Below, one piece after another: positions 822 to 20,401 of a stretch of DNA of 25,606 bases. Made by a program: the position numbers and the translations under genes. The DNA comes from Patescibacteria group bacterium (GTDB lineage Bacteria > Patescibacteriota > Patescibacteriia > UBA11705 > JABHMO01), in NCBI GenBank assembly GCA_038062385.1, contig JBBTXH010000082.1:3749-29354 (forward strand), given 5' to 3'. The notes under the pieces were generated by a model, which had not been told where the DNA came from, made no database searches, and worked only from the letters and a program-made list of their open reading frames with translations. Position 1 is the first letter of the stretch; every line of letters begins with the position of its first letter.

Positions 822-823
822 AC

Positions 824-853
824 GTAGAGACAGGTTTCAAACCTGTCTCTTTT
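824..853 (+). terminator. GTAG-led perfect hairpin plus T-tract after leuS (REP-like, probable terminator)
   Basis: GT AGAGACAGGTTT C AAACCTGTCTCT TTT: 12-nt inverted arms 826-837/839-850. Confidence 0.7.
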
Positions 854-864
854 GTAAATAAAAT

Positions 865-887
865 AGGGCCGGATTTGATCCGTCCCT
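865..887. repeat. Second REP-like hairpin
   Basis: AGGGCCGGAT ttg ATCCGTCCCT, 9/10 paired. Confidence 0.5.
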
Positions 888-907
888 GTTTTGTTTGCCA
901 GAACATA

Positions 908-1138
908 TTATTCCTTGATTACTACCACGATTATCGGTGGCAACGGTTGAGTGCCGTCTTGGAGAATGCGTTGTTCACTGCTGATGTGAACGTTGATTTC
1001 CGGCTCAGCGCATTGTTTGCTTGGACCCAGTCCGCCAGGACCAAGTCCGGCCTGAGAGAGTACGTGATTTCTGAACAGGGACAGAAAGATGAGTCCCTGC
1101 AAATTTTGGTCACTCATTAAACTCAACGCGTTCAACAT
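908..1138 (-). CDS. Hypothetical small protein (~76 aa)
   Basis: GGAGGT 5 nt before ATG at 1138 (minus) inside the 908..1168 ORF; no recognisable motif. Confidence 0.3.
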   Translation of the reverse strand: MLNALSLMSDQNLQGLIFLSLFRNHVLSQAGLGPGGLGPSKQCAEPEINVHISSEQRILQDGTQPLPPIIVVVIKE

Positions 1139-1307
1139 TTCGACCTCCAATTTGGCCACCGTGGCCATGAAAGAACATATAATTCATATTTTAATTATAG
1201 CTGATGTTTATTTATAGAGAAGACTTGACTGTGCACAACTTTATGTTAAAACCGTCAATGTTTATTAACATTTCTTTCATATTCAGTCAAAATATTACAG
1301 AGAAAAT

Positions 1308-1329
1308 AATGTTAATAACTATTAACATT
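1308..1329. promoter_or_regulatory. Perfect palindrome, candidate operator upstream of TrmB-like gene
   Basis: AATGTTAATA ac TATTAACATT; related half-sites ATGTTAA 1243-1249 and TTAACAT 1265-1271. Confidence 0.45.
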
Positions 1330-1381
1330 TTTATCTTCATTCATGATATAATCAGTATGTAATGAATTGACCAACTTAAAT

Positions 1382-2134
1382 ATGGCGCTTGTTCAAGAAT
1401 TATTGTCTGTCGGACTCACCGATAAGGAAGCGGAAGTTTATCTCGCAGCCTTGCAACTCGGCTATGCCTCTGTGCAAGAAATAGCGGTCAAGGCGAATAT
1501 TAATCGCACGACCGCTTATACCCACATAAAAAATTTGATTTCTCGCGGTTTGATCAATGCTACTGAAAAAAACGACAAGGTTTATTATTTAGCGGAACGG
1601 CCGGAAAAATTGAAATATTTGCACCAACAGCAGGAAAAGGAAATCGAACGCCGCCGCGATCTGCTCGACAAGATAATGCCTAAGCTGGAATCCATTTATA
1701 ATTTGGCGAAAGACAGGCCGAGTGTTCGTTATTACAATTATGAAAACAAAAGCGAACTTGAATCTGTCCGTAATGAAATCACTGAATTGCGTTGCGAGGA
1801 GATGTACAATATTTTCAACCACGAACTTTACGGTGATTATTTAAATCGCGATCACGTCAAGCGGTTGGTTGATTCTGTTCAGAAGTTCAAAGCGCTTTAT
1901 ATTTCAAAAAATAAAGTGGTTGATCATCGGCTGCATTCGTTTCTGGATAATGAAAAATTTAAATTGAAATTTTTGCCGGAAGCCAAATTCAGTTTTTTGT
2001 GCGAACTGCTCATTGCTGATAATAATGTCTATATCGCCGGCCGTGGAGATTGGTTGGTGATTACCGATAAATTATTTGCCCAAACGCTGGGCTTGTTATT
2101 TCACGCTTTGTGGGGAATAGCCGAGGACATATAG
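1382..2134 (+). CDS. TrmB-family HTH transcriptional regulator
   Basis: N-terminal GLTDKEAEVYLAALQLG..SVQEIA....INRTTAY winged HTH, coiled coil, PSVRYY linker; ATG at 1382 preferred over TTG at 1367. Confidence 0.85.
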   Translation: MALVQELLSVGLTDKEAEVYLAALQLGYASVQEIAVKANINRTTAYTHIKNLISRGLINATEKNDKVYYLAERPEKLKYLHQQQEKEIERRRDLLDKIMPKLESIYNLAKDRPSVRYYNYENKSELESVRNEITELRCEEMYNIFNHELYGDYLNRDHVKRLVDSVQKFKALYISKNKVVDHRLHSFLDNEKFKLKFLPEAKFSFLCELLIADNNVYIAGRGDWLVITDKLFAQTLGLLFHALWGIAEDI

Positions 2135-2137
2135 ATG

Positions 2138-2241
2138 TTACGAATTACGAATTTGTACGAATCTACGGATAACTACGAAAACTAAACTACTTACTGAATT
2201 AGTAGACATTCGTAGATTAGTAGCCAATTCGTAATTCGTAA
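2138..2241. repeat. 104-nt inverted-repeat element built of degenerate TACGAAT units
   Basis: 16-bp perfect terminal IR TTACGAATTACGAATT (2138-2153) / AATTCGTAATTCGTAA (2226-2241). Confidence 0.8.
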
Positions 2242-2249
2242 TCTAATAT

Positions 2250-3020
2250 ATGCTAGAAAGAGAATTACAAAATTTCGGTCTGAGCGAAAAAGAAGCCAAG
2301 GTTTACTTGGCGGCTTTGGAATTGGGTACGGCTACGATACAGGAATTATCAAAGAAGTCGGGCGTGAATCGCGCCACGACGTATATCCAGGTTGAGTTGC
2401 TCATTCAACGCGGACTGATTAGCAGTACTGATCGCGCCAAAAAGAGTTTGTTTATCGCCGAGAAACCACAGCGTCTGGTTGATATTTTGAACGATAAAAA
2501 GAGTAAGGTTGAGGAACTTGAAGATAAATTTACGAAGCTGATGCCGGATTTTGAAGCGATTTATAATGTTCACTCCGATCGCCCGCGCGTGCGCTTTTTC
2601 GCTGGCGAAGCTGGGCTTAATTCTTGGCGCAATGAAGTTTACAAAGACAAGCCGAAGCTGCTTTATATGATTCTTCCTGGAAAATTGAATACCATTACAG
2701 ACTTAAAGGATGACCCAGTGCTTGTTAAATTGGCCAATTCCGTGGAGACAATCAAAGTAATGTATCTTGCGGAAAAAAACTTGCCTTCGAATATATTCGT
2801 CTCATACAGAAATATTTTAACCAGGTATTTTTATATGAAAGATTTTGAATTGGATATTACTTTGTTTAATAATAAGTTGCATTTGAATAAACCGATAGGT
2901 TTTGACGCCAGCATGGGGGTAATGGTAGAAGACAAGATGTTCTGTAAAAGTTTTGTAGCCATTATTGAAACTCTTTGGCAACTTGGTCAGCCGCTTGGCG
3001 AAATTCCTAATATGAAATGA
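2250..3020 (+). CDS. TrmB-family HTH transcriptional regulator (paralog of 1382..2134)
   Basis: GLSEKEAKVYLAALELG..TIQELS....VNRATTY; PRVRFFAGEAG linker. Confidence 0.88.
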   Translation: MLERELQNFGLSEKEAKVYLAALELGTATIQELSKKSGVNRATTYIQVELLIQRGLISSTDRAKKSLFIAEKPQRLVDILNDKKSKVEELEDKFTKLMPDFEAIYNVHSDRPRVRFFAGEAGLNSWRNEVYKDKPKLLYMILPGKLNTITDLKDDPVLVKLANSVETIKVMYLAEKNLPSNIFVSYRNILTRYFYMKDFELDITLFNNKLHLNKPIGFDASMGVMVEDKMFCKSFVAIIETLWQLGQPLGEIPNMK

Positions 3021-3035
3021 TATAAGGATTAGTAA

Positions 3036-3058
3036 GATTCCGGATTGTGATCCGGAAT
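3036..3058. repeat. Short palindromic repeat
   Basis: ATTCCGGAT tgtg ATCCGGAAT followed by GAC. Confidence 0.5.
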
Positions 3059-3076
3059 GACAGTTGGAAATATAAA

Positions 3077-3102
3077 ACCGGACAGAATAGTGTGTCCGGT
3101 TA
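3077..3102. terminator. Hairpin between convergent genes, probable bidirectional terminator
   Basis: AACCGGAC agaatagtgt GTCCGGTT with A-run before and T-rich tail after. Confidence 0.6.
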
Positions 3103-3111
3103 TTTATTGAA

Positions 3112-3354
3112 CTAAAACCGCATATCGTAGGAGCTGCTTGTAGAGCTTACTTCGTCGCGGTCGTAATGATGTTCATCGCCATAAGTTGAAAAGCCGCTTC
3201 CGCCACCGCACATGCCCAAGCACGAAATATGTCGAGAACCTTGTTTAGCAGCCGTTCGAGATGTCCGAACCGGTTGTCGTGGGGTTTTCTTTGTAGTGTT
3301 GCTCCTTTTGTTTGTTTGAACTGCCACTCCCGTTTCTCCTGTTGCCGGGACCAT
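3112..3354 (-). CDS. Hypothetical 80-aa low-complexity protein
   Basis: ORF lies between a near-consensus minus-strand promoter (3394-3422) and a hairpin; weak RBS, no homolog recognised. Confidence 0.4.
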   Translation of the reverse strand: MVPATGETGVAVQTNKRSNTTKKTPRQPVRTSRTAAKQGSRHISCLGMCGGGSGFSTYGDEHHYDRDEVSSTSSSYDMRF

Positions 3355-3393
3355 CCCGTCTAAACCAATAAAAATTTATTGGAGTAACTGGAT

Positions 3394-3422
3394 AGTATAG
3401 CAGTATTATAAAAGTTTGTCAA
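3394..3422 (-). promoter_or_regulatory. Sigma70-type promoter
   Basis: TTGACA-17 nt-TATACT with extended -10 TG on the minus strand. Confidence 0.7.
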
Positions 3423-3539
3423 GCTTATTGATTGATAATCAATTTAAATGTCTGGTACAATTGATAATGTTTTTGTATATTAGTTCTTGCTAAAATTAAA
3501 CAAAAAAGGTTATATTCTCAACTTGAATGTCAGTGGCTA

Positions 3540-3568
3540 TTGACAAATTAAAAAATATGCGATATAAT
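3540..3568 (+). promoter_or_regulatory. Sigma70-type promoter
   Basis: Perfect TTGACA (3540-3545)-17 nt-TATAAT (3563-3568). Confidence 0.8.
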
Positions 3569-3627
3569 GCTTTGATGTTACCTTTGGCTGACGTGCTTGT
3601 CTAGCTAAACTTAACAAGGAGGAAACA

Positions 3628-3789
3628 ATGAATAAATTGTATCGGAAAGTGGTTCGGTTTAATAGAGAGAAGTTCTTTAGAGCGGTCAGTCGGGCGGTGA
3701 ACGGCGCGGTGCCGGCGAGCAGGCCGCATTCCTCAAAAAAAGGAAAGCGCGGTTACAGCCGCGTTCAAGGAAAGAAGGTGGAGGATTAA
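3628..3789 (+). CDS. 53-aa highly basic small protein (absent from ORF track)
   Basis: AAGGAGG SD, ATG 3628, MNKLYRKVVRFNREKFFRAVSRAVNGAVPASRPHSSKKGKRGYSRVQGKKVED, TAA 3787-3789; own promoter and terminator. Confidence 0.7.
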   Translation: MNKLYRKVVRFNREKFFRAVSRAVNGAVPASRPHSSKKGKRGYSRVQGKKVED

Positions 3790-3805
3790 AAATGAAGAGA
3801 AACAA

Positions 3806-3836
3806 AAAAGCGTTCTTAATCAAAGAGAACGCTTTT
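3806..3836. terminator. Bidirectional intrinsic terminator
   Basis: AAAAGCGTTCT taatcaaag AGAACGCTTTT between convergent genes. Confidence 0.75.
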
Positions 3837-3846
3837 AAATTTATGA

Positions 3847-5829
3847 TTATGGTTGAACCGTGCCGTTTCCCGTGGCAAAAGAATCAAGTTCAAGCGCAGT
3901 GGTTAAAATGCTTTTTGTTCTGGTGATCAGCTCATCGGTGGAGACATCTCTCGCCACGAGCGTGCAGTTCCCAGTCAACTTGAGTAGTGTTCCGATCTCG
4001 TTTGTTTGAGGAGTAAAGGCAAGGCTGAAATTAGCATGAGCTTCTTTGACTAAAGCTGGTAAACGATTTATTTTCCAGGCAATGGTGCGGCTGGCCTCAT
4101 CAAAAGTAATTTCACCGGTCGAAACATTTTTTTCGTTTATCCAATTTATATTTTGAGGTAAGGCAGTACTTACAGTTAGATCTTTTATCTCGTGAAGATC
4201 ATTGGAAAGATCCCAAAAGATTTTTAGTTTTGTGGTTTGACCAGCGTGTGGTGGCCAAGGACCAGTACCGACCGGTGTACCATCGCTGTAATAATATAAT
4301 GCTTTTGCCCCAATGTTAACGTTAGAATTCAGCACCAGAATAACCGGACTGCTTTTAACCGGTGGAATGGCGCTATTGTTTTTTTCGTCAAGAATAATTT
4401 GAGAACTTATTTCAATGGTTGATTGATTTAATGAATTGAGATCAATGTTCGTCAATTCAGCCAGTGATTTGAGAGGTAGAATGATATTAACGGAAACATC
4501 TTTGCCGGGAGCCAGAGATTTTAATTCACTGATTTGTTTCGCTTCCCAAGTGATTTCTTTGGTTTCGTTTAATTTTTGTATTTTGCCGAAATGATCGTCT
4601 TTGATTTTGTTCCAGTTGATAATTTCAGAAGATAAACTGGTAATCAATATTTTTATTTTCAAATTTTGATAAGCAGACACGCCATTGTTTTTCGCGATCG
4701 CGGAAATGGTTAATTCGTCTCCCAATCCAACGGCTTTATTTTCCGTTGAACCGTTGACGATGAGATAAGTATTGAGCGCCTGATCAATGATTTTGATCGT
4801 GAATTTTGTTTCACTAACCGCGAGGTATTGGCCGTCTTTTCCCGGCAGAAGTATTTGTACGGTGAAAGGCTGTTCGCGTTCCGCCTCATTCTGGAAGGAT
4901 AGATCAGCGGGGAAGGAGCCTTCGATGGAGATGTTTTTGCTTTCTTCTTTCCCCTTCAGTTCAGAAATTATCCATTGGTTGCTGTCTTCATAGGCATTGG
5001 GAGAAGCGTTTAAAAAGGCAAATTTTTCCGGATAGAGATATTGAAGTTTAATGTTTTCAAACAGGCGGTCGCTTTTGTTTTTCAACTTGGTTTGCAGAGT
5101 GATTTTTTGGCCGGGAGTGAGGTTAGCCGGGAAAACATTAGCCAAGTCGATTTGCGGCGCTTCGAGTGCGATGGAAAGAGATGTCTCTTTGGTAAAGTCT
5201 GAACGGAAATTGTCAGGTTGAAAGGTAATGGCCGCGATTAATTTCTGTTCACTCTCTAAAGTATCAACGATTTTGCCGGTAATCGTGATCTTGCCTTTTT
5301 GTCCAGGGGCTAAAGTTCCCAATTCCCATTTGTGATTGGAATTTTGTGGCTCTGCTTTCATCATGATAAAGCCTTTGGGATATTGGACGGTGATGCGACT
5401 GGTCAGAAAGTCAGCGTCGCCAAGGTTTTGATAGGTGATAATGTAGGCAAATTCTTCGCCAACTTGAATTTTATCAGGAGCTTCAATGGCGATACTAACA
5501 GCTTCTGTTGCCGGCCGCACGTTGCCGCTGAAATAAAAAAAACCGGCTAACGCTGATCCGGCCAATAGCACCAGACCGATGATTGAGAAAATGACAATCT
5601 TTTTTTTGCGATGTTGTCGCTTTTCGTCGATCAATTCCTTCAGATAATATTCGTCTTTCAATTTATTGATCTGGCTTTCGTGTTTAGCATCCACGGCTTC
5701 AATTGAAACGCCATTCAATTCTTGTTCTTCTTCAGCATAAAGGTCGATCAGATCCTGAATCGGATCTTCTTTTTTGTATTTTATTTTTTTTCTTTTAAAT
5801 TTAAAAAAATGGTTTTTTTTATTATCCAT
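3847..5829 (-). CDS. Membrane-anchored extracellular protein with repeated beta-sandwich (DUF11-like) domains
   Basis: Single N-terminal TM (IVIFSIIGLVLLAGSALAGFFYF); repeats such as GEEFAYIITYQNLG and WELGTLAPGQKGKITITG. Confidence 0.7.
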   Translation of the reverse strand: MDNKKNHFFKFKRKKIKYKKEDPIQDLIDLYAEEEQELNGVSIEAVDAKHESQINKLKDEYYLKELIDEKRQHRKKKIVIFSIIGLVLLAGSALAGFFYFSGNVRPATEAVSIAIEAPDKIQVGEEFAYIITYQNLGDADFLTSRITVQYPKGFIMMKAEPQNSNHKWELGTLAPGQKGKITITGKIVDTLESEQKLIAAITFQPDNFRSDFTKETSLSIALEAPQIDLANVFPANLTPGQKITLQTKLKNKSDRLFENIKLQYLYPEKFAFLNASPNAYEDSNQWIISELKGKEESKNISIEGSFPADLSFQNEAEREQPFTVQILLPGKDGQYLAVSETKFTIKIIDQALNTYLIVNGSTENKAVGLGDELTISAIAKNNGVSAYQNLKIKILITSLSSEIINWNKIKDDHFGKIQKLNETKEITWEAKQISELKSLAPGKDVSVNIILPLKSLAELTNIDLNSLNQSTIEISSQIILDEKNNSAIPPVKSSPVILVLNSNVNIGAKALYYYSDGTPVGTGPWPPHAGQTTKLKIFWDLSNDLHEIKDLTVSTALPQNINWINEKNVSTGEITFDEASRTIAWKINRLPALVKEAHANFSLAFTPQTNEIGTLLKLTGNCTLVARDVSTDELITRTKSILTTALELDSFATGNGTVQP

Positions 5830-5852
5830 AACAAAGGCGGTGATTAGAGTTT

Positions 5853-8399
5853 CTATTTGAGAGAGAGCGCGAAGAGTTGGTCAGTATAAAAAGAAGAAGC
5901 GGTTTCGATGGGACTGGCGACATCCGTTGATTTTATCGGATAGAGCCAATTCGCTGATACGCCTTCCGGCAGATTGATCTTGATGTTGAAATTTGTTTGT
6001 TGGCTGCCGGACTGTTTTTGCAGAAACAAGGAATAAAAAGAAGTTTCAGGCGCGTCGGCGAATGACAGTAAGGTTTTTTTGCCCGGCAGATTCAACTGAA
6101 AAGGAAGTTTGTATTTAAGAACAACTTTTGATTCTTCCCCTGCGTCAGTTTGAATCCAGTTGGCGAAAACTGTTTTGTTGAATTCATTGTTTATTTTTGT
6201 CTGGTTGGTCACGTCAGTTTTGATTTTTCCTTGAATATTGTCCAGAAGTTCGTCTTTTGACCAAGCGCTATTCGGCTTTTCAAAAAGTTCAGCCGGCATC
6301 TCACTGAAACCTTCGGCGGAAATAAGTTGACTGGCTAAGGGAGTATAAATTCTGGTGTAAACCAAGTTGGACCCTTGGCCTGATTGATCGGTCGGCTGAC
6401 CGTTATGTTTGCGGGTAATGGTCAGGGTATTGAAGACGTCCCCATCATCATCAATGGTTGATTCCAGTTTGATATTTTGTTCAATATAGTAATCGGTTTT
6501 ATTGCCGCCGATATTTGTATTGATAACCGAAAGATAATCTTTTGAACTGTCGAGCAGCTCTCCCGACCAACCGTAGGCGGAAAACTTTTCTTGAATAACG
6601 TCATCGGAGAAATACAGTTGAATGTCTTTTTGATCCAAACCGTTTTTAAAAACTTGAGAAATTTTCAGAAGTTGATCGCCCTTGCTGGCAAATATTTTTT
6701 TCAAAAGTTCAGGCGCGATGGCTGATAATATTTTCTTCGGTTGATTGTCTTTGATTGTTTTGTTTTCGTGATCAATGGTTTTTTGCAGTTCAGTAATAAA
6801 ACCGGCGGCCTCAAAGGTGCGGCCATCAGCCAAACTAATGTTGCCGATGATTTTCATCAGTTCCGGGATGAGCGTGGCATTGATGGCGATAACGCCGTCC
6901 ACGCTTGGGCCGCCCGAGTTTTCATAAAACCATTTTATTTTTTGGGCGGAGGTTGGGAAATTTGGAAACCAATTGGCGTCTTGCATTTCCCAGAGCGGAT
7001 TGATGAGATGCAGCGGCTCGGGTGAAATTACTTTTTTGAGCAAGGATCCTTGCAGATCGTAAGTGCCGCCTCCCGGTATTTCCATGTTTTTTATTTCACC
7101 GCGATCAATGTCCACCAAAGCATAACTGCCCATAAAGCCGCCGGTTGGTCTGATCTCATTATTGTTTTGGAAAATGAAAAGATAGCGCTTTTTGTAATCA
7201 GAACCGAGAACCTGCTGGATCGTTTGCGACAATTCATTCAAATCATCCAAGTCGCTGTGGAGGGTCAGTAGATATTTTTTAATACGGACAAAATCATTTA
7301 TTTTTTCAGTCGGAATAGCTTCCGGCCTTATTTTAGAGAGAGAGTTGTTGAGCTGATTCAGTTTTGGCGTGAGGGTGAAAAGTTTTGCTTCGATTTGCGC
7401 CAAGCGGTCGGTCAATTTCGTCTTGTTATTTTTTTTGAAATCGCTCATGAGTTCGCTGACTGATCCGCCGATTTGCGCGGCCGCGCGTCCAGCCTCCAGT
7501 AAGTATTCGGCATCAGCTAAGTTGGCTGAATCGGTTGGAAGTATTTTTAAAATTGTTTTTAGCAATGGATCAATACTGTTCAGTTCAGCGGCGGCTTGAG
7601 ACAGGGCGGAACTAGCGAGATTAAACTTCGCCTCTGCGTCAGTGGCGTTGTCTTGCGACAATTCTTGCCCGGCAATTTTCATGTCAGCATAAGCGGTCGT
7701 GGCATAATTTACTATTTGGTCTTTTGATTTTTGAATTTTTTGATAATGACCGAAAACCTTGATCGGAGCAATGATCAACAAGGCAACAACAATGAATGAA
7801 ACCACTGAACGATGCCAATTGATTGGCAGATTGAAATGATAAAATATTGGTACGGGAGTGAGTTGCTTGAACAGTTCATCGCTGTCCGGAAATTCGTCCG
7901 GCGCGGCTGGTTCGATCGGCGCCGCGCTTTCTTTGATGATGATATTCTTTGTGGCAGGCACGGACAGAACAGTGTTCTGTCCGTACGTATTTTGAGATGA
8001 TTTTTTGAAAAAAGAATGAATGCGCGCTTTGTGCTCTTCAATCGCCTTCTTTTTTTTAACAAGACCGGTTAAATCAAGCACAAAAGGCGAGTGATGATGG
8101 TGCTCGGAGCTGTTTTTTACAATAATTTCAGTATGGTGATGAACATCTTTTTTTGCCAAAGTTTCTCCAGCTGGCATCATTTTGGCCAGTTCTCGCATAA
8201 TCGTTGATTCCAGTTCTTTTTCCGGTCTGCTTACCGAGTGATGCTCCATGATGGAGTCAATCTCATGTTGAAGAAGCCCGATGGTTATCGGGGATTGATC
8301 AGTTGATTCGGTCACATGTTTTTTTTCAACTTTAACATGCGCGCTTGTCGGAGCGATTCTTTTGGAAAATTTTTTTGTTTTATGATTTTTCGGTTTCAT
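5853..8399 (-). CDS. DUF4012-domain membrane protein
   Basis: TM near aa 200; YLFIFQNNNEIRPTGGFMGSY, DANWFPNFP, VDGVIAIN, NTNIGGNKTD motifs typical of this family. Confidence 0.85.
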   Translation of the reverse strand: MKPKNHKTKKFSKRIAPTSAHVKVEKKHVTESTDQSPITIGLLQHEIDSIMEHHSVSRPEKELESTIMRELAKMMPAGETLAKKDVHHHTEIIVKNSSEHHHHSPFVLDLTGLVKKKKAIEEHKARIHSFFKKSSQNTYGQNTVLSVPATKNIIIKESAAPIEPAAPDEFPDSDELFKQLTPVPIFYHFNLPINWHRSVVSFIVVALLIIAPIKVFGHYQKIQKSKDQIVNYATTAYADMKIAGQELSQDNATDAEAKFNLASSALSQAAAELNSIDPLLKTILKILPTDSANLADAEYLLEAGRAAAQIGGSVSELMSDFKKNNKTKLTDRLAQIEAKLFTLTPKLNQLNNSLSKIRPEAIPTEKINDFVRIKKYLLTLHSDLDDLNELSQTIQQVLGSDYKKRYLFIFQNNNEIRPTGGFMGSYALVDIDRGEIKNMEIPGGGTYDLQGSLLKKVISPEPLHLINPLWEMQDANWFPNFPTSAQKIKWFYENSGGPSVDGVIAINATLIPELMKIIGNISLADGRTFEAAGFITELQKTIDHENKTIKDNQPKKILSAIAPELLKKIFASKGDQLLKISQVFKNGLDQKDIQLYFSDDVIQEKFSAYGWSGELLDSSKDYLSVINTNIGGNKTDYYIEQNIKLESTIDDDGDVFNTLTITRKHNGQPTDQSGQGSNLVYTRIYTPLASQLISAEGFSEMPAELFEKPNSAWSKDELLDNIQGKIKTDVTNQTKINNEFNKTVFANWIQTDAGEESKVVLKYKLPFQLNLPGKKTLLSFADAPETSFYSLFLQKQSGSQQTNFNIKINLPEGVSANWLYPIKSTDVASPIETASSFYTDQLFALSLK

Positions 8400-8477
8400 T
8401 GTCTATGGTTACGGATGTACGGATAAACGTACAGATAGTACAGATTATTAGACGCAGATGAGGGATATTGGGGGATA

Positions 8478-8520
8478 CCCATAAACCAGTTGCGTATTCT
8501 CGCAACGGTTTAGGGCAAGC
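8478..8520 (-). repeat. CTTG-footed hairpin element
   Basis: CCCATAAACC a GTTGCG tattct CGCAAC GGTTTAGGG CAAGC; the arm plus CAAG matches copies at 15204-15270, 17073-17113 and 23600-23636. Confidence 0.6.
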
Positions 8521-8566
8521 GAGGGAAACGAGGGTATTGATTTTTTGTTTTATTGTACAGCTCCGT

Positions 8567-8606
8567 TGCTTTAGTGCTTCTATGTTTCTATGCTTAAATG
8601 CTTTGA
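8567..8606. repeat. 8-nt-period tandem array overlapping GT4 stop codon
   Basis: tgctttag/tgcttcta/tgtttcta/tgcttaaa/tgctttga. Confidence 0.75.
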
Positions 8607-9709
8607 TACACCGCTAAGGTTTGCTCCGCGCATTTTTTCCAACTGAATCGTTTTACGTTTTCCAATCCTTTATTTCTGAGTTCTTGTTTTAAAGTTTCGT
8701 TTGATAAAACAGCATAAATCTGTTCAGACATTTCATTGCTGCTCCACGGGTTGAAAAACAGGGCAGAGTCATTCAGAATTTCAGGCATTGATGAGGTATT
8801 TGTGCTGACTACCGAGCAACCGCATTTTTGCGCTTCAATGGCGATAAGTCCAAAGCCTTCGATGAAAGAGGGGAGGACAAAGAGGTCAGCGGCATTATAA
8901 AGTGGGGGTAGTTCTTGATCGCTGATATAACCGGTGGTGATAATATCGTTTTTGAATGGCGAAGCGTTAATCCTTTCGCGAACTTTTGTATCGTGCAAGT
9001 CTTCTCGTCCACCAAGAACAAGTTGATGCGGTAAAGCGTAATTTTTTTTCAGCAAATTAAATGCTTCCACCAATCCGGTGAGATTTTTGTGATCTCGCCA
9101 AACGCCAACGTAAAATATGAACGGTTGGCAAATTCCGAACTTGTTTTTTACTTTATTTATTATAGCACAATTTTCAATTATTTTAAAACGTTCGTCCACA
9201 CCTTCGTGAGTGACAATGATTTTGTCCGGATTAACCTTGAAATACCGGATAATGCCTTGTTTCGTGCTCTCTGAAACAGCGATAATTTTGGTTGCTTTTT
9301 TAACGGTTGAACGGAAAACTGCGCGATAACCGAGGCGTCTGATCAAGGAATTCATTTTATGTCCGGGAAATGTCAGCGGCGTGAGGTCATGAATGGTGCA
9401 GATTGATTTTTTGGGAAATAGAATCGGCGAGTTGAAATGAGGGTAGTGAATCAGGTCGAATTTTTCTCGCAGGAATTGAATCGGCAGTAAAAATTGTTCT
9501 TGATAGGTGTACCAACGCGGAGTTACTTTGACTTTTTTAACGCGACTGTTCGGTTCAATAAATTTGGAGAAAGCCGGTTCGCGCAAAAACAAAACATATT
9601 CGTTTTCAGAGTCTATTTGAAACAAATTGTCAGTCAAGTTTTTTATGTAAGTGCCGATGCCGGTGCATTCTTCATTACCGTACATTCTGGCGTCGATGGC
9701 GATTTTCAT
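8594..9709 (-). CDS. Glycosyltransferase family 4 (GT-B)
   Basis: MKIAIDAR start, TIHDL, FYVG...HKNL, EGFGLIAIEAQKCG signature. Confidence 0.93.
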   Translation of the reverse strand: MKIAIDARMYGNEECTGIGTYIKNLTDNLFQIDSENEYVLFLREPAFSKFIEPNSRVKKVKVTPRWYTYQEQFLLPIQFLREKFDLIHYPHFNSPILFPKKSICTIHDLTPLTFPGHKMNSLIRRLGYRAVFRSTVKKATKIIAVSESTKQGIIRYFKVNPDKIIVTHEGVDERFKIIENCAIINKVKNKFGICQPFIFYVGVWRDHKNLTGLVEAFNLLKKNYALPHQLVLGGREDLHDTKVRERINASPFKNDIITTGYISDQELPPLYNAADLFVLPSFIEGFGLIAIEAQKCGCSVVSTNTSSMPEILNDSALFFNPWSSNEMSEQIYAVLSNETLKQELRNKGLENVKRFSWKKCAEQTLAVYQSI

Positions 9710-9740
9710 AGAAGCAAAAAAGCAAAGAAGCAATAAAACA
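9709..9740. repeat. 8-nt-period tandem array at GT4 start, inverted relative to 8567-8606
   Basis: tagaagca/aaaaagca/aagaagca/ataaaaca. Confidence 0.7.
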
Positions 9741-9743
9741 AAA

Positions 9744-9983
9744 CTATGGATTGTAGGTAATATCAGAGCGTCGTTCGATGGTTAATATTTTAATGACGGT
9801 TTCGTGTTTATGAAAAATAATTCTGATATTGCCTTGTCTTGCGCGAAAAACATCATCGCGGCCTTTGAGTTTCATTATATCAACATGGCTAAAATCCCCG
9901 CTTAAGATTTTTTCCAGCAGAATTTTAACCTTCGTTTTTTCTTTGGCGCTAAGTTTTACCAACGCTTTTGAAATCTTATCCAT
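9744..9983 (-). CDS. RelE/ParE-family toxin
   Basis: 79 aa, basic, DIMKLKG..DVFRARQGNIRIIF...IKILTIERR pattern; 1 nt downstream of antitoxin. Confidence 0.8.
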   Translation of the reverse strand: MDKISKALVKLSAKEKTKVKILLEKILSGDFSHVDIMKLKGRDDVFRARQGNIRIIFHKHETVIKILTIERRSDITYNP

Positions 9984-9984
9984 G

Positions 9985-10194
9985 TTATAAGCGTTTTAGA
10001 ACCTCATTGATTTCAACCCCGCCTTTTTTGATTTTTGTGAAATCAATCACTTCCTCCCAGGCTTCATCGTCAACCGGAGAAATTTTAAATATCGGTTCTG
10101 ATCGCCGAATGACGATAAACGATTCGCCGGCTTTGATTTTTTGGCGATAGGATTCTAGGTTTTCTCGTAAGGATTTTAGTTTGATGGTAGTCAT
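9985..10194 (-). CDS. Phd/YefM-family antitoxin
   Basis: MTTIKLKSLRENL..Y...I.AGESFIVIRRSEPIFKISP pattern with acidic tail. Confidence 0.82.
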   Translation of the reverse strand: MTTIKLKSLRENLESYRQKIKAGESFIVIRRSEPIFKISPVDDEAWEEVIDFTKIKKGGVEINEVLKRL

Positions 10195-10201
10195 GTTTTT
10201 C

Positions 10202-10253
10202 AAGTTAAACTTAAGGTTATCTTTAGTTTAACTTAATATTTTGGCGGTGTCAA
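10202..10253 (-). promoter_or_regulatory. TA promoter with overlapping palindromic operator
   Basis: TTGACA (10248-10253)-17-TAAACT (10225-10230); IR AAGTTAAACT 10202-10211 / AGTTTAACTT 10225-10234. Confidence 0.7.
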
Positions 10254-10301
10254 ATTTTAAAATGAAAAGCCCCAATATGATTATTGAGGCAACTTCTTGG
10301 G

Positions 10302-10514
10302 CTAGAAGGTGAGAAGAGCGCGAGGAATCCTCGGGGCGCAATAGAGAGCTTCCACCGCCGGATCAATCCCGTCAACATTTTCTCCTTCAATTCTCATCGA
10401 GGCGATCGCGCCGGTCACTATGGAATTAGCTATCATCTCGCGAAGTTCTTTTTCAGACAGATTAACCGTGACGTCCCCATCATCATCAGAAACGTGTATT
10501 TGGAAAGCAGACAT
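10302..10514 (-). CDS. Small protein with Fic-inhibitory SxxxEG motif (VbhA-like antitoxin candidate)
   Basis: AAGGAGG SD, ATG 10514, promoter TTGACA (10561-10566)-17-TAAACT; sequence contains GAIASMRIEG. Confidence 0.6.
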   Translation of the reverse strand: MSAFQIHVSDDDGDVTVNLSEKELREMIANSIVTGAIASMRIEGENVDGIDPAVEALYCAPRIPRALLTF

Positions 10515-10589
10515 TCGCACCTCCTTTGCGTAGTTTGAGTTTAACGTTTTTAGAGGTAAATGTCAATGGTTTCGTTTTAAAATGAAAAT

Positions 10590-10613
10590 CCCCATCGTGC
10601 GATGATGATGGGG
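10590..10613 (-). terminator. Terminator hairpin downstream of tRNA-Gln copy
   Basis: CCCCATCGT gcgatg ATGATGGGG, T-rich tail on minus strand. Confidence 0.65.
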
Positions 10614-10621
10614 CTTATGAG

Positions 10622-10692
10622 TTCGGGCGGGAGGGATCGAACCTCCATAATAGGATCCAAGGTCCTGTGTCCTACCATTGAACGACGCCCGA
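10622..10692 (-). tRNA. tRNA-Gln(TTG), island copy (C33, C27-A43 mismatch)
   Basis: TCGGGCG/CGCCCGA acceptor, GTTC/GGAC D-stem, CAGGA CCTTGGA TCCTA anticodon arm, GGAGG TTCGATC CCTCC T-arm; no encoded CCA. Confidence 0.88.
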
Positions 10693-10708
10693 TTTGGAAA
10701 TAAAATCG

Positions 10709-10782
10709 TGTCTCCAACGAGATTTGAACTCGTGTCACCGGCGTGAAAAGCCGGTGTCTTAATCTGGCTAGACGATGGGGAC
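10709..10782 (-). tRNA. tRNA-Glu(TTC), with deviations
   Basis: CCGGC TTTTCAC GCCGG anticodon arm, ACGAG TTCAAAT CTCGT T-arm; acceptor C4-A69 mismatch; D-loop lacks GG. Confidence 0.85.
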
Positions 10783-10832
10783 TCTTTGAAACTTGGCGGG
10801 CATTTCTGGTTAAGTACCCCACCTTTACAGCA

Positions 10833-10861
10833 ATTATAGGGCTTATTTGAGGCTTTGTCCA
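10833..10861 (-). promoter_or_regulatory. Promoter for tRNA-Glu/tRNA-Gln pair
   Basis: TGGACA (10856-10861)-17-TATAAT (10833-10838). Confidence 0.65.
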
Positions 10862-11035
10862 ACGGACAAAATGAGGCATGTGGGTCGGGGTCTTATAAGA
10901 TAACTTGTGAGACATTGGAAAAACAGATGGGTCTCACAGATTTGAGGATTGGCTAAGATAAGCGGGATAAAAGTGAGATGAGACAAATGAGACACGGAAA
11001 GAGCTTTCTCGACCATTAAGATTCCATCAATCTAT

Positions 11036-11064
11036 TTGACAAAACGAATATAATCGCATATAAT
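11036..11064 (+). promoter_or_regulatory. Promoter of Fic operon
   Basis: Perfect TTGACA-17-TATAAT. Confidence 0.8.
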
Positions 11065-11093
11065 CAAATACAGATTATACATAACATTATAAT

Positions 11094-12158
11094 ATGCCAA
11101 AATTAAACAAAAGGTTCTCTTTTAATCCCGAAGCAACCCACAAAATCTATGGCCTGATCGCGCAAATCGACGAACTGAAAGGCCAATGGAAAATGGGAGC
11201 GAATCTGTCACCGCAGACTTTAGGCATGCTGAAAAGATCGGTCATTGTCACGTCCTCTGGTGCGTCCACTCGTATTGAAGGAGCGAAGCTTACCGATGAA
11301 CAGGTTGAGAAATTGCTCAAAGGGTTGAAGATCCAAAAACTGGCCACTCGAGATGAACAAGAGGTCGCCGGCTATGCCGAGCTGCTGACCAATGTTTTTG
11401 ATTCATACAAAAAGTTGGAACTGACTGAAAGCACGATAAAACATTTCCACAGTGAACTACTGAAGTACTCGGATAAGGATGTTCGCCACCGCGGCGAGTA
11501 TAAATTTGGCACTAACCGAGTGGAAGCCAAGGATGCCGACGGGAAGGTGGTCGGCGTATTGTTCGACCCTACCCCGCTTCATTTGGTTGCCAAGGAGATG
11601 CAAGAACTTATTGAGGAAACGAAAAAACTTTTGGAAGCAAAAGAAGTCCATCCCCTGATTGTTATCGCCGCTTTTATTTTTGAATTTTTATCCATCCACC
11701 CGTTCCAAGACGGGAACGGCAGATCTTCTCGCGTGCTAACAAATTTGTTGCTTTTAAAGAACGGCTATGAATACATGCCGTATGTTTCGCATGAGAAATT
11801 AGTGGAAGACAATAAGAATGAATACTATCTTGCTCTCAATCGAACGCAACGAACGTGGAAAACGGAACACGAAGACATCAGTCCGTGGCTGTTGTTTTTC
11901 CTGAATATTATGCTCAAGCAAACTCAAATCGCAATCGGGTTGTTATCCAAAGAATCCATTGAAAATATGCTTTCGGAAAAACAACTGGCCGTCTGGCATT
12001 ATTTCAGCGCGCACGACACCGTAACGCCGAAAGAATTGCGAGACAACCTTAAAATTGCCGGGCCGACAGTGGCGCAAATTTTAAACAAGCTTTTGGAAAT
12101 GAGAAAAATTGAACGCCTGGGAGCTGGCAGAAGCTCAAGGTATCGATTGCTTAAATAA
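11094..12158 (+). CDS. Fic-family protein (class II-like) with C-terminal winged HTH
   Basis: Intact HPFQDGNGRSSR active-site motif; N-terminal STRIEG inhibitory motif. Confidence 0.93.
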   Translation: MPKLNKRFSFNPEATHKIYGLIAQIDELKGQWKMGANLSPQTLGMLKRSVIVTSSGASTRIEGAKLTDEQVEKLLKGLKIQKLATRDEQEVAGYAELLTNVFDSYKKLELTESTIKHFHSELLKYSDKDVRHRGEYKFGTNRVEAKDADGKVVGVLFDPTPLHLVAKEMQELIEETKKLLEAKEVHPLIVIAAFIFEFLSIHPFQDGNGRSSRVLTNLLLLKNGYEYMPYVSHEKLVEDNKNEYYLALNRTQRTWKTEHEDISPWLLFFLNIMLKQTQIAIGLLSKESIENMLSEKQLAVWHYFSAHDTVTPKELRDNLKIAGPTVAQILNKLLEMRKIERLGAGRSSRYRLLK

Positions 12159-12160
12159 CT

Positions 12161-12418
12161 ATGTCGATAAAAATCAAGACGGCGCATGCCCGCAATTGGT
12201 TCTACGGCAACATCTGCACCAAAAAGTGTTACGCCGACATTGAAAAGCAAAAACATTGCTATGATAAAATGGCCGAGATGATCAAAGGTAATGAAGACTA
12301 CTTCATTACGCATAACACCTTTGTTAAAACAATACGCCAAAAACACAAAGAAGTCTGTGACATTTCCGATGAGCTTTTTAACCACAATGAAAGCGATTTT
12401 TGGCATCGAAAACTTTAA
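12161..12418 (+). CDS. Hypothetical 85-aa protein
   Basis: Packed 2-3 nt from both neighbours in the same direction; no motif recognised. Confidence 0.65.
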   Translation: MSIKIKTAHARNWFYGNICTKKCYADIEKQKHCYDKMAEMIKGNEDYFITHNTFVKTIRQKHKEVCDISDELFNHNESDFWHRKL

Positions 12419-12421
12419 TTT

Positions 12422-14594
12422 GTGATTGATCTAACTCCCCAAGAAAAAATTGCTTTGTTTAAATCCCTCTTCCGCGGAAGAGAGGATGTTTTTGCCGTGC
12501 GCTGGGAGAAAAAAGACGGTTCAGCTTCCGGCTATACGCCCGTTTGCCTGAATGAATGGAAAACCGACATATGCAACAAGCTCCAAAGCAAAAAATGCAA
12601 GGATTGCGCTCATAGCCAATATATCGGGATCAGCGAGCAACACATTGAGCAGCATCTGCGCGGCGCGAAAACATATGGAATTTATCCATTATTGAATGAC
12701 AATTCATCCTGTTTTATTGTCGCTGATTTTGATGGGAATGATTGGCAAGAAAAAATCGACGGGTTCCATGGCATTTGTTCAAAGCATGATCTGCCTGCAT
12801 ATATCGAACGCTCGCGCTCCGGCAATGGCGGCCATGCCTGGATATTCTGTGAGGACAAATACCCTGCCTACAAAAGCAGAAATGTGGTCATTAACCTGCT
12901 GAAAGAAGCGGGCATAATTGATCAATTTGAAAAAGACGATTGCTTTGACCGGTTATTTCCCAATCAAGACGCGCTTAGCGGCAAAGGTTTCGGCAACCTT
13001 ATCGCCTTTGCCGCTACAAGGTGAGGCGCGCAAGCGCGACAATACCGTATTTTTAGATCCTGACGCTAATTTGTTGCCGTTTGCCGACCAATGGGAATTA
13101 TTGAAACTGATAAAACGCGTTCCAATCGCGCATTTGGATAAATTGCATGCTCTTTTCAATTCCGCCGGCGCGGAGCCGAGTTCGTCGGCTTCCGAATTAA
13201 GCATTACCGTCGGAAATATGCTTTTCCTGAATAAATCCTTTCTGCCTAAGATTTTGATAAATTACCTGAAAGATACGCTTAATTTTCTAAATTCCGACTT
13301 TCTGATAAAAAAGAAAATCGGTGCTTCGGTGTATAAGGTGGGAAAATATTTCAAGCTGATTCAAACGTTTGACGATACCATCGCCATCCCGCGCGGTTTT
13401 CTGCATAGATTGACTGATTTCCTGAAAGAAAAGCATACTGAGTATAAAATTGATGATCGGCGTTTAAAGCTCGATGAAGTAAAATTTGAAAACAGTATCA
13501 AATTGTTCCCTCATCAGGTCGAAGCAGTTGATAAAATGATCGCCGTTGACGCCGGCGTCCTAGTTGCGCCGCCCGGCTCAGGGAAAACAATCATCGGGCT
13601 AGACATAATTGCCAAACAAAAACAGCCGGCCTTGATTTTGACGAATAAAAAGCAAATCTTCAACCAATGGCTGGAACGAATAGAAGGGTTTCTTAATTTA
13701 CCAAAGCGCCAGATTGGACAATATACCTCGAATAAGAAGAAGCTTGGAGAAAAGATCACGGTCGCGATGGTGCAGACGCTGAACAACGCGGCCGAACAAG
13801 AACTCGCCGGAAAATTCGGCCTGATACTGGTGGATGAATACCATCACATGCCCGCAAAAATGTTCCGCAACGTCATCACCAGATTCAATCCTTATTTTCT
13901 TTACGGACTTACGGCCACGCCAAAACGAAAAAACAATGACACGGATTTGATCTTCTTCTTTCTCGGCGATATAATCCACACCATGCCGAATTCATTCGGG
14001 AAACCGGAAGCCGCGAAACAAAGCACCGTAGTGGCAAAGTCGCCCAGTGGTTTGAAAGTTATCATTAGAGAAACGGATTTGTCCGTTCCGTTTAAAGTCA
14101 AGACGGACAATGTGCAGATGCTGTACAAAATTATCACTTTTGATACGGCGAGAAACAAGCAAATCATTGCCGACATCAAACGCGAAGCGGAACAGAACAA
14201 ACGGTGCTTGATTTTGACCGAGCGCAAGGAACACGTGGATGTTTTGAACTCCTATCTGAAGCGAGAATATGAAACTATCATTCTGACAGGCGACTTAACC
14301 GAAAAACAGCGTCGACTGAAAGTGAAGCAGATCCAAGCAGGGCATTTCCAGATACTTATCGCCACCGGCCAGCTCATCGGAGAAGGAACTGATTTTAACA
14401 ACTTAGATTGCCTTTTTCTTGCATTTCCCTTTGCCTTTGAAGGCAAATTGACGCAATATATCGGGAGGATCAACCGCGGTCTGAATACTGGCGGAACGAT
14501 TTATGATTACAATGATAGCCAAGTCGAATATCTGAAAAGATTTTTCAAAAAGCGGAATGCTTATTATCGGAAGAACTTCGAATGTGTGCAATAG
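12422..14594 (+). pseudogene. AEP (TOTE-type) primase domain plus SF2 DExH helicase, split by one +1 frameshift
   Basis: LFRGREDVFA, GIYPLL, ADFD, ERSRSGNGGHAWIF, DRLFPNQD primase-like motifs; removing one T of TTT 13007-13009 restores GNLIALPLQGE; helicase APPGSGKT, DEYHH, TAT, QYIGR. Confidence 0.8.
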
Positions 14595-14642
14595 CGGCAA
14601 ACATAAAAACAGCCAACGAATGGATCTGTTTTTAAAATATAA

Positions 14643-14670
14643 AACCTCATCGTGCGATGACGATGAGGTT
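14643..14670 (-). terminator. Terminator of tRNA operon
   Basis: AACCTCATCGT gcgatg ACGATGAGGTT, 11 bp, T-tract on minus strand. Confidence 0.75.
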
Positions 14671-14676
14671 AATGAG

Positions 14677-14748
14677 TTCGAGCGGGAGGAATCGGACCTC
14701 CGTTCCGGGATCCAAAGTCCCGTGTCCTGCCAACTGGACGACGCTCGA
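14677..14748 (-). tRNA. tRNA-Gln(TTG), resident copy
   Basis: TCGAGCG/CGCTCGA, CGGGA CTTTGGA TCCCG, GGAGG TCCGATT CCTCC (C at position 55). Confidence 0.9.
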
Positions 14749-14775
14749 ATTACGGATTAGAAATCGAAAAAGAAA

Positions 14776-14926
14776 GTGATTAGCGCACTGGCATTATGCA
14801 AGTCGCCGCCACTTATGTGGAAGCCACGCCCGTAGATTACTGCTCCTTATGAGCGCGTAATCACCAACGCCTTGTCGCATTTGCGCCTGCCAAGTTTCCC
14901 GGGCCGGGTTCTTGGCAACTAATCAC
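14776..14926 (-). ncRNA. Unassigned 151-nt structured RNA within tRNA operon
   Basis: 8-bp closing helix GTGATTAG/CTAATCAC, several internal helices; G-U pairs favour the minus strand. Confidence 0.6.
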
Positions 14927-14928
14927 AG

Positions 14929-15013
14929 AGGAAAGAGTGGGATTCGAACCCACGGAGGCTTTCACCTCTGCGGTTTAGTAGACCGCCGCCTTAAACCACT
15001 CGGCCATCTTTCC
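14929..15013 (-). tRNA. tRNA-Ser with ACT anticodon
   Basis: GGAAAGA/TCTTTCC acceptor, GCGGT CT ACT AA ACCGC, long variable arm, GTGGG TTCGAAT CCCAC. Confidence 0.9.
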
Positions 15014-15036
15014 TTTTACAAGTGAACGTTGATTAG

Positions 15037-15177
15037 AGGAGGGAGTGGGATTTTCATCTCGCCAGCGGGCGGGACGGGCTCCACGGGAGCTTTCACCCCA
15101 GTGGTTTTCAGGACCACCGCCTTAAGCCGCCCCGCCTTCGCATGAAGCTATGACGGGGCAAGCTCGGCCATCCCTCC
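15037..15177 (-). tRNA. tRNA-Ser(TGA) with D-loop and T-loop hairpin insertions (141 nt)
   Basis: GGAGGGA/TCCCTCC acceptor, GTGGT CCTGAAA ACCAC, variable arm GGGGTGAAAGCTCC; insertions at 15129-15161 and ~15055-15080. Confidence 0.8.
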
Positions 15178-15184
15178 TTTGATT

Positions 15185-15270
15185 CAGGGCTTGTGGTTCA
15201 GGGCTTGCCCTGAACCCGAACCGCACTTAGACTAGACAAAGAACTTGGAAAGGAAGTGAGTGGTTCAGGG
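15185..15270. repeat. Composite CTTG-footed hairpin element in tRNA spacer
   Basis: CTTG CCCTGAACC (15208-15216) ... GGTTCAGGG (15262-15270); reverse complement matches 23600-23639 at both ends. Confidence 0.75.
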
Positions 15271-15343
15271 TGCGCACCGCGGGGCTCGAACCCGCGACCT
15301 ACGGATTAAAAGTCCGGTGCTCTACCAACTGAGCTAGGTGCGC
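15271..15343 (-). tRNA. tRNA-Lys(TTT)
   Basis: GCGCACC/GGTGCGC, loop CTTTTAA, GCGGG TTCGAGC CCCGC. Confidence 0.95.
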
Positions 15344-15369: not shown

Positions 15370-15398
15370 ATTATAGCATATCAGAAATTTATTGTCAA
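15370..15398 (-). promoter_or_regulatory. tRNA operon promoter
   Basis: Perfect TTGACA-17-TATAAT with extended -10 TG. Confidence 0.85.
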
Positions 15399-19969: not shown

Positions 19970-20079
19970 ATTTCAGAAAATAATTGATGAATGAATATAT
20001 TATAACAGTTATTATGCGGAATGTCGATTTTTAAAAAATAAAAAAACACCAATTTTTACAATTGCTGTTTTTTAATGTC

Positions 20080-20401
20080 CCAAACAAGCGAATAAGCCGG
20101 ATTCTGTTTTAACTGTCATCTATCTTGTCCCGCAATCGCTGGAGAGATCATGCGGGCTACCAAATTTGCCCTTGCACCCAAGTAAGGGTTTAGCCGTTTC
20201 ACTCCCACCTTCGCATAAAGCTACGGTGGGACTAATCCCGAAGGATCCCAAGAACCTCGCGGTCTTGGCGTCTCTGCTCGCACCTCTATCTCACGACCGA
20301 CAGGGATTACCTGCTACTCGCGTCAATTTAATGGCTAGGTGTCCGGACTTTCCTCTCCCCGTAGCTTTACGCGAAGGGGAGCGACAGAACTGCTTGTTTG
20401 G
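20080..20401 (-). ncRNA. rnpB: RNase P RNA (type A-like)
   Basis: P1 CCAAACAAGC/GCTTGTTTGG; conserved GAGGAAAGTCCGGAC and AAACAGAATCCGGCTTA P4 halves. Confidence 0.95.

Follow-up and report, generated by a model that had tools for sequence, protein, structure and literature searches.

A redundant tRNA-Ser(UGA) paralog, probably disabled by two hairpin repeats, in an accessory tRNA array of a Patescibacteria genome

The 141-nt tRNA-Ser(UGA)-like gene described here is, with a probability of about 0.8, a redundant, island-borne paralog disabled by two hairpin repeats. It occupies positions 15037-15177 (minus strand) of a stretch of 25,606 nt, hereafter the window, on contig C82 of a metagenome-assembled genome of the Patescibacteria group (G000; 1.08 Mb, 152 contigs, 41% GC). 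Among named organisms, those most closely related by their proteins are Candidatus Falkowbacteria and other Patescibacteria. The genome encodes tmRNA and a bacterial class A RNase P RNA, and the DNA runs containing the locus originate from groundwater.

The course of events proposed is the following. Two small repeats, palindromic and GC-rich, would have broken a spare tRNA-Ser(UGA) paralog placed in a variable accessory tRNA array, one entering the D-loop before G18G19 and the other the T-loop after C56. Both sites would be hot spots for the insertion of hairpin repeats in the tRNA copies of this genome, the T-loop site also across the whole class. The invaded copy would since have been under relaxed constraint, with the loss of T54, psi55 and, in this strain, of the G53:C61 pair; a precursor RNA would still be made, its maturation into a working tRNA being unlikely.

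For strain comparison, four versions of the locus were used: the window itself, two contigs spanning the locus from two independent studies (X1, 2021, and X2, 2025), and a contig (L148) of the NCBI assembly GCA_964362205.1, which was reached via protein look-ups from G000 and matches the window with 99.94% identity over 19.7 kb, without gaps. Contig 8 of the same assembly is referred to as L154. A sister species is represented by the contig L149, on which the adjoining GT4 protein has 79% identity, and G009, belonging to a related genus and carrying a canonical tRNA-Ser(UGA), served as ortholog reference. The class-wide counts refer to 301 genomes of the bacterial class of G000.

Anatomy of the invaded copy

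Read on the minus strand (RNA position 1 corresponds to window position 15177 and position 141 to 15037), the gene shows the features of a type II tRNA: a paired 7-bp acceptor stem (GGAGGGA, 15171-15177, with UCCCUCC, 15038-15044), a D-stem (GCC/GGC), a 5-bp anticodon stem with a 7-nt loop (GUGGU-CCUGAAA-ACCAC, 15101-15117) and a long variable arm (GGGGU-GAAA-GCUCC). The anticodon UGA stands at 15108-15110 within the loop CCUGAAA, and position 33 is a C. The initial annotation, which had described a tRNA-Ser(UGA) with hairpins in the D- and T-loops, intact acceptor, anticodon and variable stems and C33, agrees with this reading of the minus strand. The D-loop insert comprises 33 nt (15129-15161), placed just 5' of G18G19, after position 16/17, and folds into an 8-bp stem (GCCCCGUC/GGCGGGGC) enclosing a 15-nt loop. 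Its deletion in silico yields GCCGAGCGGCTTAAGGC, that is, a canonical D-loop, as had been claimed.

The T-arm has the form GUGGA-GCC-[23-nt hairpin]-AAAU-CCCAC. Its insert (15054-15076, minus strand) follows C56 and consists of the hairpin CGUCCCGCC-CGCU-GGCGAGAUG, of the CCGCC-N4-GGCGG family. When these 23 nt are deleted, a loop GCCAAAU is left instead of UUCRAAU, and T54 and psi55 are not restored, in keeping with the earlier remark that removal of this hairpin leaves no TTC. The window allele has neither the G53:C61 pair nor the 7-nt T54-psi55-C56-R57-A58 loop of a regular T-arm.

The nucleotide at position 33 is a different matter. Although U33 is near-universal in tRNAs, the C33 of this gene is, on comparison of sequences, a lineage trait and no sign of decay, because the canonical tRNA-Ser(UGA) genes of G009 and G022 (L002 and L007) have C33 as well; it was also seen in several metagenome tRNAs. 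A scan of metagenomes with the anticodon arm returned 47 loci, mostly coding sequence, among which there was no close insert-bearing relative of the gene and there were a few unrelated tRNA-Ser(UGA) genes with C33. Unrelated metagenome tRNA-Ser genes with C33 that share the arm GGUGGUCCUGAAAACCAC were found at L033, L038, L069, L071, L073 and L078.

A chance resemblance to a tRNA is excluded by homology and folding: the invaded copy is 88% identical over 59 nt to the canonical tRNA-Ser(UGA) of G009 (E = 2.5e-15), and its predicted fold beats 200 of 200 shuffled sequences (z = -3.5). Neither ARAGORN, which makes no call of the gene, nor the Rfam tRNA family, which gives no match even at E <= 10, recognizes it. 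The G009 ortholog is a plain gene of 86 nt with neither insert, located in an array which also contains tRNA-Lys(UUU) and tRNA-Ser(ACU).

The four versions of the locus differ at two positions, both within the gene and both representing a pair-breaking G>A change in the RNA. At 15059, in the stem of the T-loop insert, the window has A, giving a C.A mismatch, and X1, X2 and GCA_964362205.1 have the G of the repeat consensus. At 15080, corresponding to tRNA position 53, the window, X1 and GCA_964362205.1 have A, which breaks G53:C61, and X2 has G. The minimum free energy (MFE) structure of the G53 allele is a complete cloverleaf with two extra hairpins; that of the window (A53) allele is no cloverleaf, the variable and T regions being misfolded. 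When both inserts are removed in silico, ARAGORN calls the G53 allele only. These differences, two changes in all, are suggestive of relaxed constraint, and the proposal that the gene is still under selection for pairing finds no support in them, as both break pairs.

The accessory tRNA array and the ordinary tRNA-Ser(UGA)

The invaded copy is the second gene of an operon with the order Lys(UUU), Ser(UGA), Ser(ACU), a 151-nt RNA and Gln(UUG), all on the minus strand. The operon is headed by a sigma-70 promoter (TTGACA-17-TATAAT, 15370-15398) that matches the consensus in 12 of 12 positions and is TG extended, and it ends after tRNA-Gln with a terminator-like hairpin and T-run (14643-14670). 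Its first gene, tRNA-Lys(UUU), lies at 15269-15343, and an intact tRNA-Ser(ACU), also present in G009, follows 23 nt downstream of the invaded copy (14928-15013). Since the latter stands between a perfect promoter and a terminator, within a tRNA operon, a Lys-Ser-Ser-Gln precursor that includes it is probably still made. A search of RNA runs found only four, with 4% of the words of the locus, which represent conserved tRNA sequence of other organisms; no RNA run containing the locus itself was found. A tRNA-Ser with the anticodon ACU is unusual for bacteria; with its A34, it occurs in G000 (14928-15013, minus strand) and in G009 (L002:1586-1671, minus strand) besides a normal Ser(GCU).

Several observations show the array to be variable and dispensable. 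In the sister species contig L149, the promoter, tRNA-Lys(UUU), the only array gene kept there, and its spacer are as in the window and are followed by a terminator, the region corresponding to window ~10565-15200 being missing. In a relative of about 97% identity from a drinking-water run (X11; one low-depth contig), position 14927 is joined straight to 15270, and the composition of the G009 array differs again. Moreover, the array tRNAs Lys(UUU), Gln(UUG) and Glu(UUC) duplicate housekeeping genes located elsewhere in G000; the latter encode CCA, the array counterparts do not. Because it is absent from the sister species, the region ~10565-15200 is an accessory island of spare tRNAs with unusual anticodon loops. 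It contains, in addition to the Ser tRNAs and Gln, a helicase, an AEP-TOTE primase-like gene, Fic, Glu and a second Gln.

In the G000 assembly, neither ARAGORN nor Rfam nor an anticodon stem-loop scan found a second Ser(UGA) candidate, and UCA is the most used Ser codon (13.5 per 1000), so that a functional reading of the invaded copy was at first plausible. The assembly is incomplete for tRNAs, because tRNA-Asn(GUU) was found neither by ARAGORN nor by Rfam or an anticodon-arm scan, AAU and AAC codons being common; the missing gene probably lies in another assembly gap. A disguised tRNA-Asn(GUU) or a second, disguised Ser(UGA) in G000 was also considered, and was dropped when the anticodon stem-loop scan revealed none.

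UCA has been shown to be decoded by an ordinary tRNA-Ser(UGA) encoded elsewhere, in a gap of the G000 assembly. The contig L154 bridges the G000 contigs C88 (100% identity), C39 (99.5-99.7%) and C109 (100% over 5.6 kb), and includes a stretch of 135 nt between C88 and C39 (L154:56-190) that is unassembled in G000. Within this stretch, at L154:75-164, stands a tRNA-Ser(UGA) with U33 and an encoded CCA, which is called by ARAGORN and matches the Rfam tRNA family with 59.6 bits (E = 3.5e-12). No match to this gene was found within G000, and a 91% identical counterpart is located beside Ser(GCU) in G004, a member of the same family. The tRNA interrupted at the edge of C39 was completed through GCA_964362205.1 alone, its missing 5' part being absent from all other contig ends of G000. 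The initial annotation had asked whether the locus was the only Ser(TGA) gene: it is for the G000 assembly, and it is not for the species, so the two readings which took the RNA for a functional oversized tRNA or for the substrate of an unknown excision pathway have lost their main support. Because the ordinary copy exists, neither an oversized tRNA nor a new splicing pathway is needed.

The surroundings of the ordinary gene are themselves rich in remnants. The first 940 nt of L154 correspond to the end of C88, the gap and C39. Only 7 nt past the intact Ser(UGA) with its CCA begins the remnant of an older Ser(UGA), which runs from the anticodon loop to position 56, continues with a double hairpin and resumes with positions 57-73. 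It is followed by an 82-aa GIY-YIG gene (270-518), by two Ser(GCU) copies in tandem, both of which have CCA and carry hairpins in the T-loop, and, further on, by an intact Ser(GCU) without CCA and an FGase gene. The order in the sister species (L153) is Ser(GCU), Ser(UGA) and FGase, with nothing more, and on L154 a different copy seems to have taken the place of the housekeeping Ser(UGA). An exact look-up of the C39 FGase protein gave no match; two Hainich contigs carry this protein.

For counts of tRNA genes in fragmented CPR genomes, these results call for caution: what looked like a giant tRNA and the sole reader of UCA was an accessory copy, the real gene being hidden by an assembly gap which the same repeats had partly caused.

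Origin of the inserts and rival explanations

Both inserts belong to families with several related copies in the genome. The T-loop insert is one of a family of GC-rich hairpins of the type CCGCC-N3-5-GGCGG, of which 33 strict copies, often doubled, were found in G000; it is identical in 22 of 23 nt to C62:12592-12614 and has further relatives on contigs C15, C110 and C50. In the D-loop insert, the element shared with other hairpins is the 15-nt loop module AUAGCUUCAUGCGAA (15137-15151, minus strand; TTCGCATGAAGCTAT on the plus strand), which has three matches in the window against 0.38 expected. The same module recurs under different stems, twice in rnpB and at about six other sites of the genome, and, because both orientations occur, an insertion at the DNA level would fit better than a function in RNA. 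Since, in addition, both inserts are missing from the orthologous gene of G009, the suggestion of a repeat-invaded gene, one of three made originally, has been borne out; the pairing selection attached to it has not.

The rnpB gene (20077-20400, minus strand) deserves a separate description. The loop module lies at 20210-20224 (plus strand) and, inverted, at 20361-20375 (minus strand), and the two loops, of P3 and of a second hairpin, are complementary in the RNA in 14 of 15 positions plus one G.U. They could form a kissing contact or merely represent two insertions of one palindromic element. Related modules are found at varying positions in the rnpB of relatives. Moreover, at 20134 and 20143, 9 nt apart in an rnpB helix, the plus strand of the window has A and GCA_964362205.1 has C, which may be a paired change. 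A reading of the D-insert loop as a K-turn was dropped on inspection, since a 3-nt bulge followed by GA is missing.

For the hairpin inserts, neither a mobilising enzyme nor a duplicated target was found. The only Y1 (IS200/RAYT-like) transposase found in G000, of 180 aa (C98:412-954; L146), is flanked by its own repeats, GTTCCCAAGC...GCTTGGGAAC, which are unlike the CCGCC hairpins, and mobilisation of the RAYT/IS200 type was therefore rejected. A domain search found no TnpB-type domain.

Among known systems, the inserts resemble the REP/BIME, MITE-like and Rickettsia palindromic elements, which are also short, GC-rich, multicopy hairpins inserted into genes, including those for structured RNAs, with empty orthologous sites. 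They differ from these in their insertion points, namely the tRNA D-loop (before G18G19, and within the loop in genome G016) and T-loop (56/57), in the recurrence of the T-loop junction across the class (48 of 301 genomes), in a family whose loop is constant while its stem changes, and in the different repeat flanking the sole Y1 transposase. In the same bacterial group, short (<200 bp) uncharacterised insertions without ORFs, unlike introns, have been described in CPR 16S and 23S rRNA genes, placed at the tops or bases of stem-loops and accompanied in some cases by GIY-YIG genes (Tsurumaki et al. 2024, PMC11270868). That report also concerns short insertions in structured RNA genes, but is restricted to the 16S and 23S rRNA and leaves tRNA unmentioned (PMC11270868), whereas the host here is a redundant tRNA. 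No GIY-YIG gene stands at the invaded copy, although such genes accompany related hairpins elsewhere.

With the archaeal non-canonical tRNA introns, the locus shares the presence of short insertions in D- and T-loops. Those introns form a bulge-helix-bulge that is cut by EndA and joined by RtcB; here, the predicted folds are flush hairpins and lack bulges of 3 nt at a spacing of 4 bp, searches for EndA and RtcB found neither in a host that is bacterial by its tmRNA and RNase P RNA, and excision would restore no T-loop. Group I and II introns have a catalytic core of hundreds of nt and, in bacterial tRNAs, usually occupy the anticodon loop. The present inserts measure 33 nt in the D-loop and 23 nt in the T-loop, and Rfam finds no intron at the locus. 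Furthermore, mobile elements entering tRNA genes leave displaced tRNA remnants, and SegB of phage T4 is a free-standing GIY-YIG homing endonuclease encoded in a tRNA cluster. Both have likenesses elsewhere in G000 and in the class, where an intact tRNA is followed by its own 3' partial copy and small GIY-YIG genes lie inside such units; the reported locus differs in having neither a duplicated tRNA part nor a GIY-YIG gene, but two bare hairpins only. No integrase was seen, and, in contrast to classic att sites, the hairpins lie exactly inside the loop of the remnant. As regards the naturally occurring non-canonical tRNAs, the subject of a review (Krahn et al. 2020, PMC7609411), the likeness is that the tRNA-like gene has a form other than the 76-93-nt cloverleaf. 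Those odd tRNAs that are known to function have altered arm lengths or lost arms, and we know of no functional tRNA with two hairpins added at the elbow; function of the invaded copy as a non-canonical tRNA is unlikely.

Four explanations can be weighed on this basis. The disabling of a redundant paralog by repeat insertion is favoured by the canonical gene of the same species, by an array that is missing in L149 and shortened in the X11 relative, by the repeat nature of both inserts and their absence from G009, by the other insert-bearing tRNA copies, which are remnants beside intact genes (C39, C51, C88, C110, C130 and G016), by the signs of decay given by the two G>A changes and the misfolding of the window allele, and by the failure to find RtcB (PF01139) or a splicing endonuclease (PF01974) in G000. 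On the other side, the stems outside the T-loop are still perfectly paired, so that decay is slight and the insertion maybe recent; the X2 allele still folds into a cloverleaf with its two hairpins; the operon is strongly promoted and the gene persists in samples of 2021 and 2025; the polymorphism argument rests on two changes; and the hairpin type of the D-insert sits in the single rnpB gene, which indicates that such hairpins are tolerable at peripheral sites of essential RNAs. The cloverleaf fold of the G53 allele, the promoted operon and the presence of the hairpin type in rnpB also speak for a functional oversized tRNA, a 141-nt RNA that would be processed, charged by SerRS and used on the ribosome as an extra reader of UCA/UCG, its hairpins projecting from the elbow. 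All four cloverleaf stems, G18G19 and C56 are retained, and SerRS identifies its tRNAs chiefly by their long variable arm and their acceptor stem. Such an outcome is improbable, however, as G and C replace T54 and psi55 and G53:C61 is broken in this strain; the T-loop and the elbow, on which RNase P, EF-Tu and the ribosome rely, are formed from these residues. Moreover, the canonical Ser(UGA) makes the copy unnecessary, some relatives lack the locus, and the other insert-bearing copies that were read are partial or degenerate.

Removal of the inserts from the RNA, either by splicing or by cutting like that of rRNA intervening sequences, would give a tRNA of normal length or a fragmented one whose pieces stay joined through its stems. 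In its favour are the clean hairpin form and loop position of the inserts and the many short uncharacterised insertions of CPR rRNA genes (PMC11270868), but it is very improbable: a search with PF01974 and PF01139 found neither an archaeal-type splicing endonuclease nor an RtcB ligase in the fragmented G000 genome, control genomes giving matches; neither junction allows a bulge-helix-bulge to be drawn; group I or II introns would be much longer than these inserts; the excised T-arm has no T-loop; and the canonical gene ends the need for the invaded copy. Overall, the chance is small that the RNA of 141 nt serves as a tRNA, either whole or in fragments. Finally, a chimeric join of repeats within a tRNA gene, created during assembly or binning, could be imagined for a genome of 152 contigs in which tRNA loci rich in repeats, for example that at the C39 edge, coincide with contig breaks, but has practically no weight, since X1, X2 and GCA_964362205.1 span the locus with the same structure, at 0-2 bases from the window, and the GC content of contig C82 is that of G000 as a whole.

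Recurrent hairpin sites in tRNA copies of the class

The two insertion sites are used repeatedly in G000. T-loop hairpins after position 56 occur in two Ser copies on C39, in a partial Trp copy on C51 and in remnants on C110 and C88, and D-loop hairpins just before G18G19 in two partial Ala copies on C130 and a fragment on C110; nearly all these copies are partial or degenerate and stand beside an intact gene. At C130:2080-3010 (L087), a tRNA-Ala with the anticodon UGC precedes two tandem units of ~410 bp, each made of a 94-aa GIY-YIG gene, a double hairpin and a tRNA copy from G18 to the 3' end, with the junction immediately 5' of G18G19.

In the class, the T-loop junction, searched as GGTTC followed by a TGCGCC or TCCGCC hairpin, was found in 48 of 301 genomes, against 2 for a reversed control pattern. 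An intact tRNA lay at most 150 nt upstream in 24 of the 43 junctions that were read, and at most 400 nt downstream in 9 of the 43. The units have the form GGTTC, GC-rich double hairpin, RAATCC and tRNA 3' end (for example L094, L096, L131, L135 and L143), are usually placed just downstream of an intact tRNA sharing the same 3' end, and are in some cases tandem. The D-loop junction is rarer, with 16 matches in 12 of 301 genomes against 5 for the control, a moderate enrichment, and its position is not strictly fixed, the copy in G016 having been entered after G18G19C20. This copy, a Ser(GCU) with hairpins in both the D- and the T-loop, is followed ~300 nt downstream by an intact Ser(GCU) and an intact Ser(UGA) gene and is clearly a remnant, the direct analogue of the invaded copy. 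Small GIY-YIG genes (PF01541) are found within hairpin-tRNA units on C130, on C39/L154 and at six other loci, with a density about 15 times that of the genome as a whole.

Literature searches brought up no paper describing hairpins inserted into tRNA loops in CPR bacteria, the insertions described being those in rRNA, and the pattern of hairpins at fixed loop positions in tRNA copies, beside intact tRNAs and GIY-YIG genes within one class of Patescibacteria, seems to be undescribed. As a tentative idea, held at somewhat less than even odds, the two hairpins could be footprints of an undescribed family of tRNA-targeting mobile elements in Patescibacteria. Such an element would enter tRNA genes at their two most conserved boxes, the T-loop at 56/57 and the D-loop beside G18G19, and would often carry a small GIY-YIG nuclease gene together with a replacement piece of the tRNA, so that an intact gene would survive. 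The displaced copy would be left with GC-rich hairpins in its loop, which might block re-cutting, and the reported locus would be a full-length copy entered at both sites without replacement. If a homing system of this kind cuts and heals tRNA genes, it would represent a new lifestyle of selfish DNA within the most conserved genes and, if real, a driver of tRNA gene turnover in very small genomes; the class-wide pattern may matter more than the locus from which it was recognised.

Two further observations concern structured RNA genes of G000. On contig C9 (1-4600; L079), the 23S rRNA gene is split by a group I intron (1514-1730), recognized by Rfam, and by further insertions, and one copy of the 15-nt-loop hairpin lies in this region, near 3456. 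At C86:2954-3017, a degenerate tRNA-Gly(CCC)-like copy of 64 nt, to which Rfam gives 29.4 bits, precedes the intact tRNA-Gly(CCC) by 70 nt.
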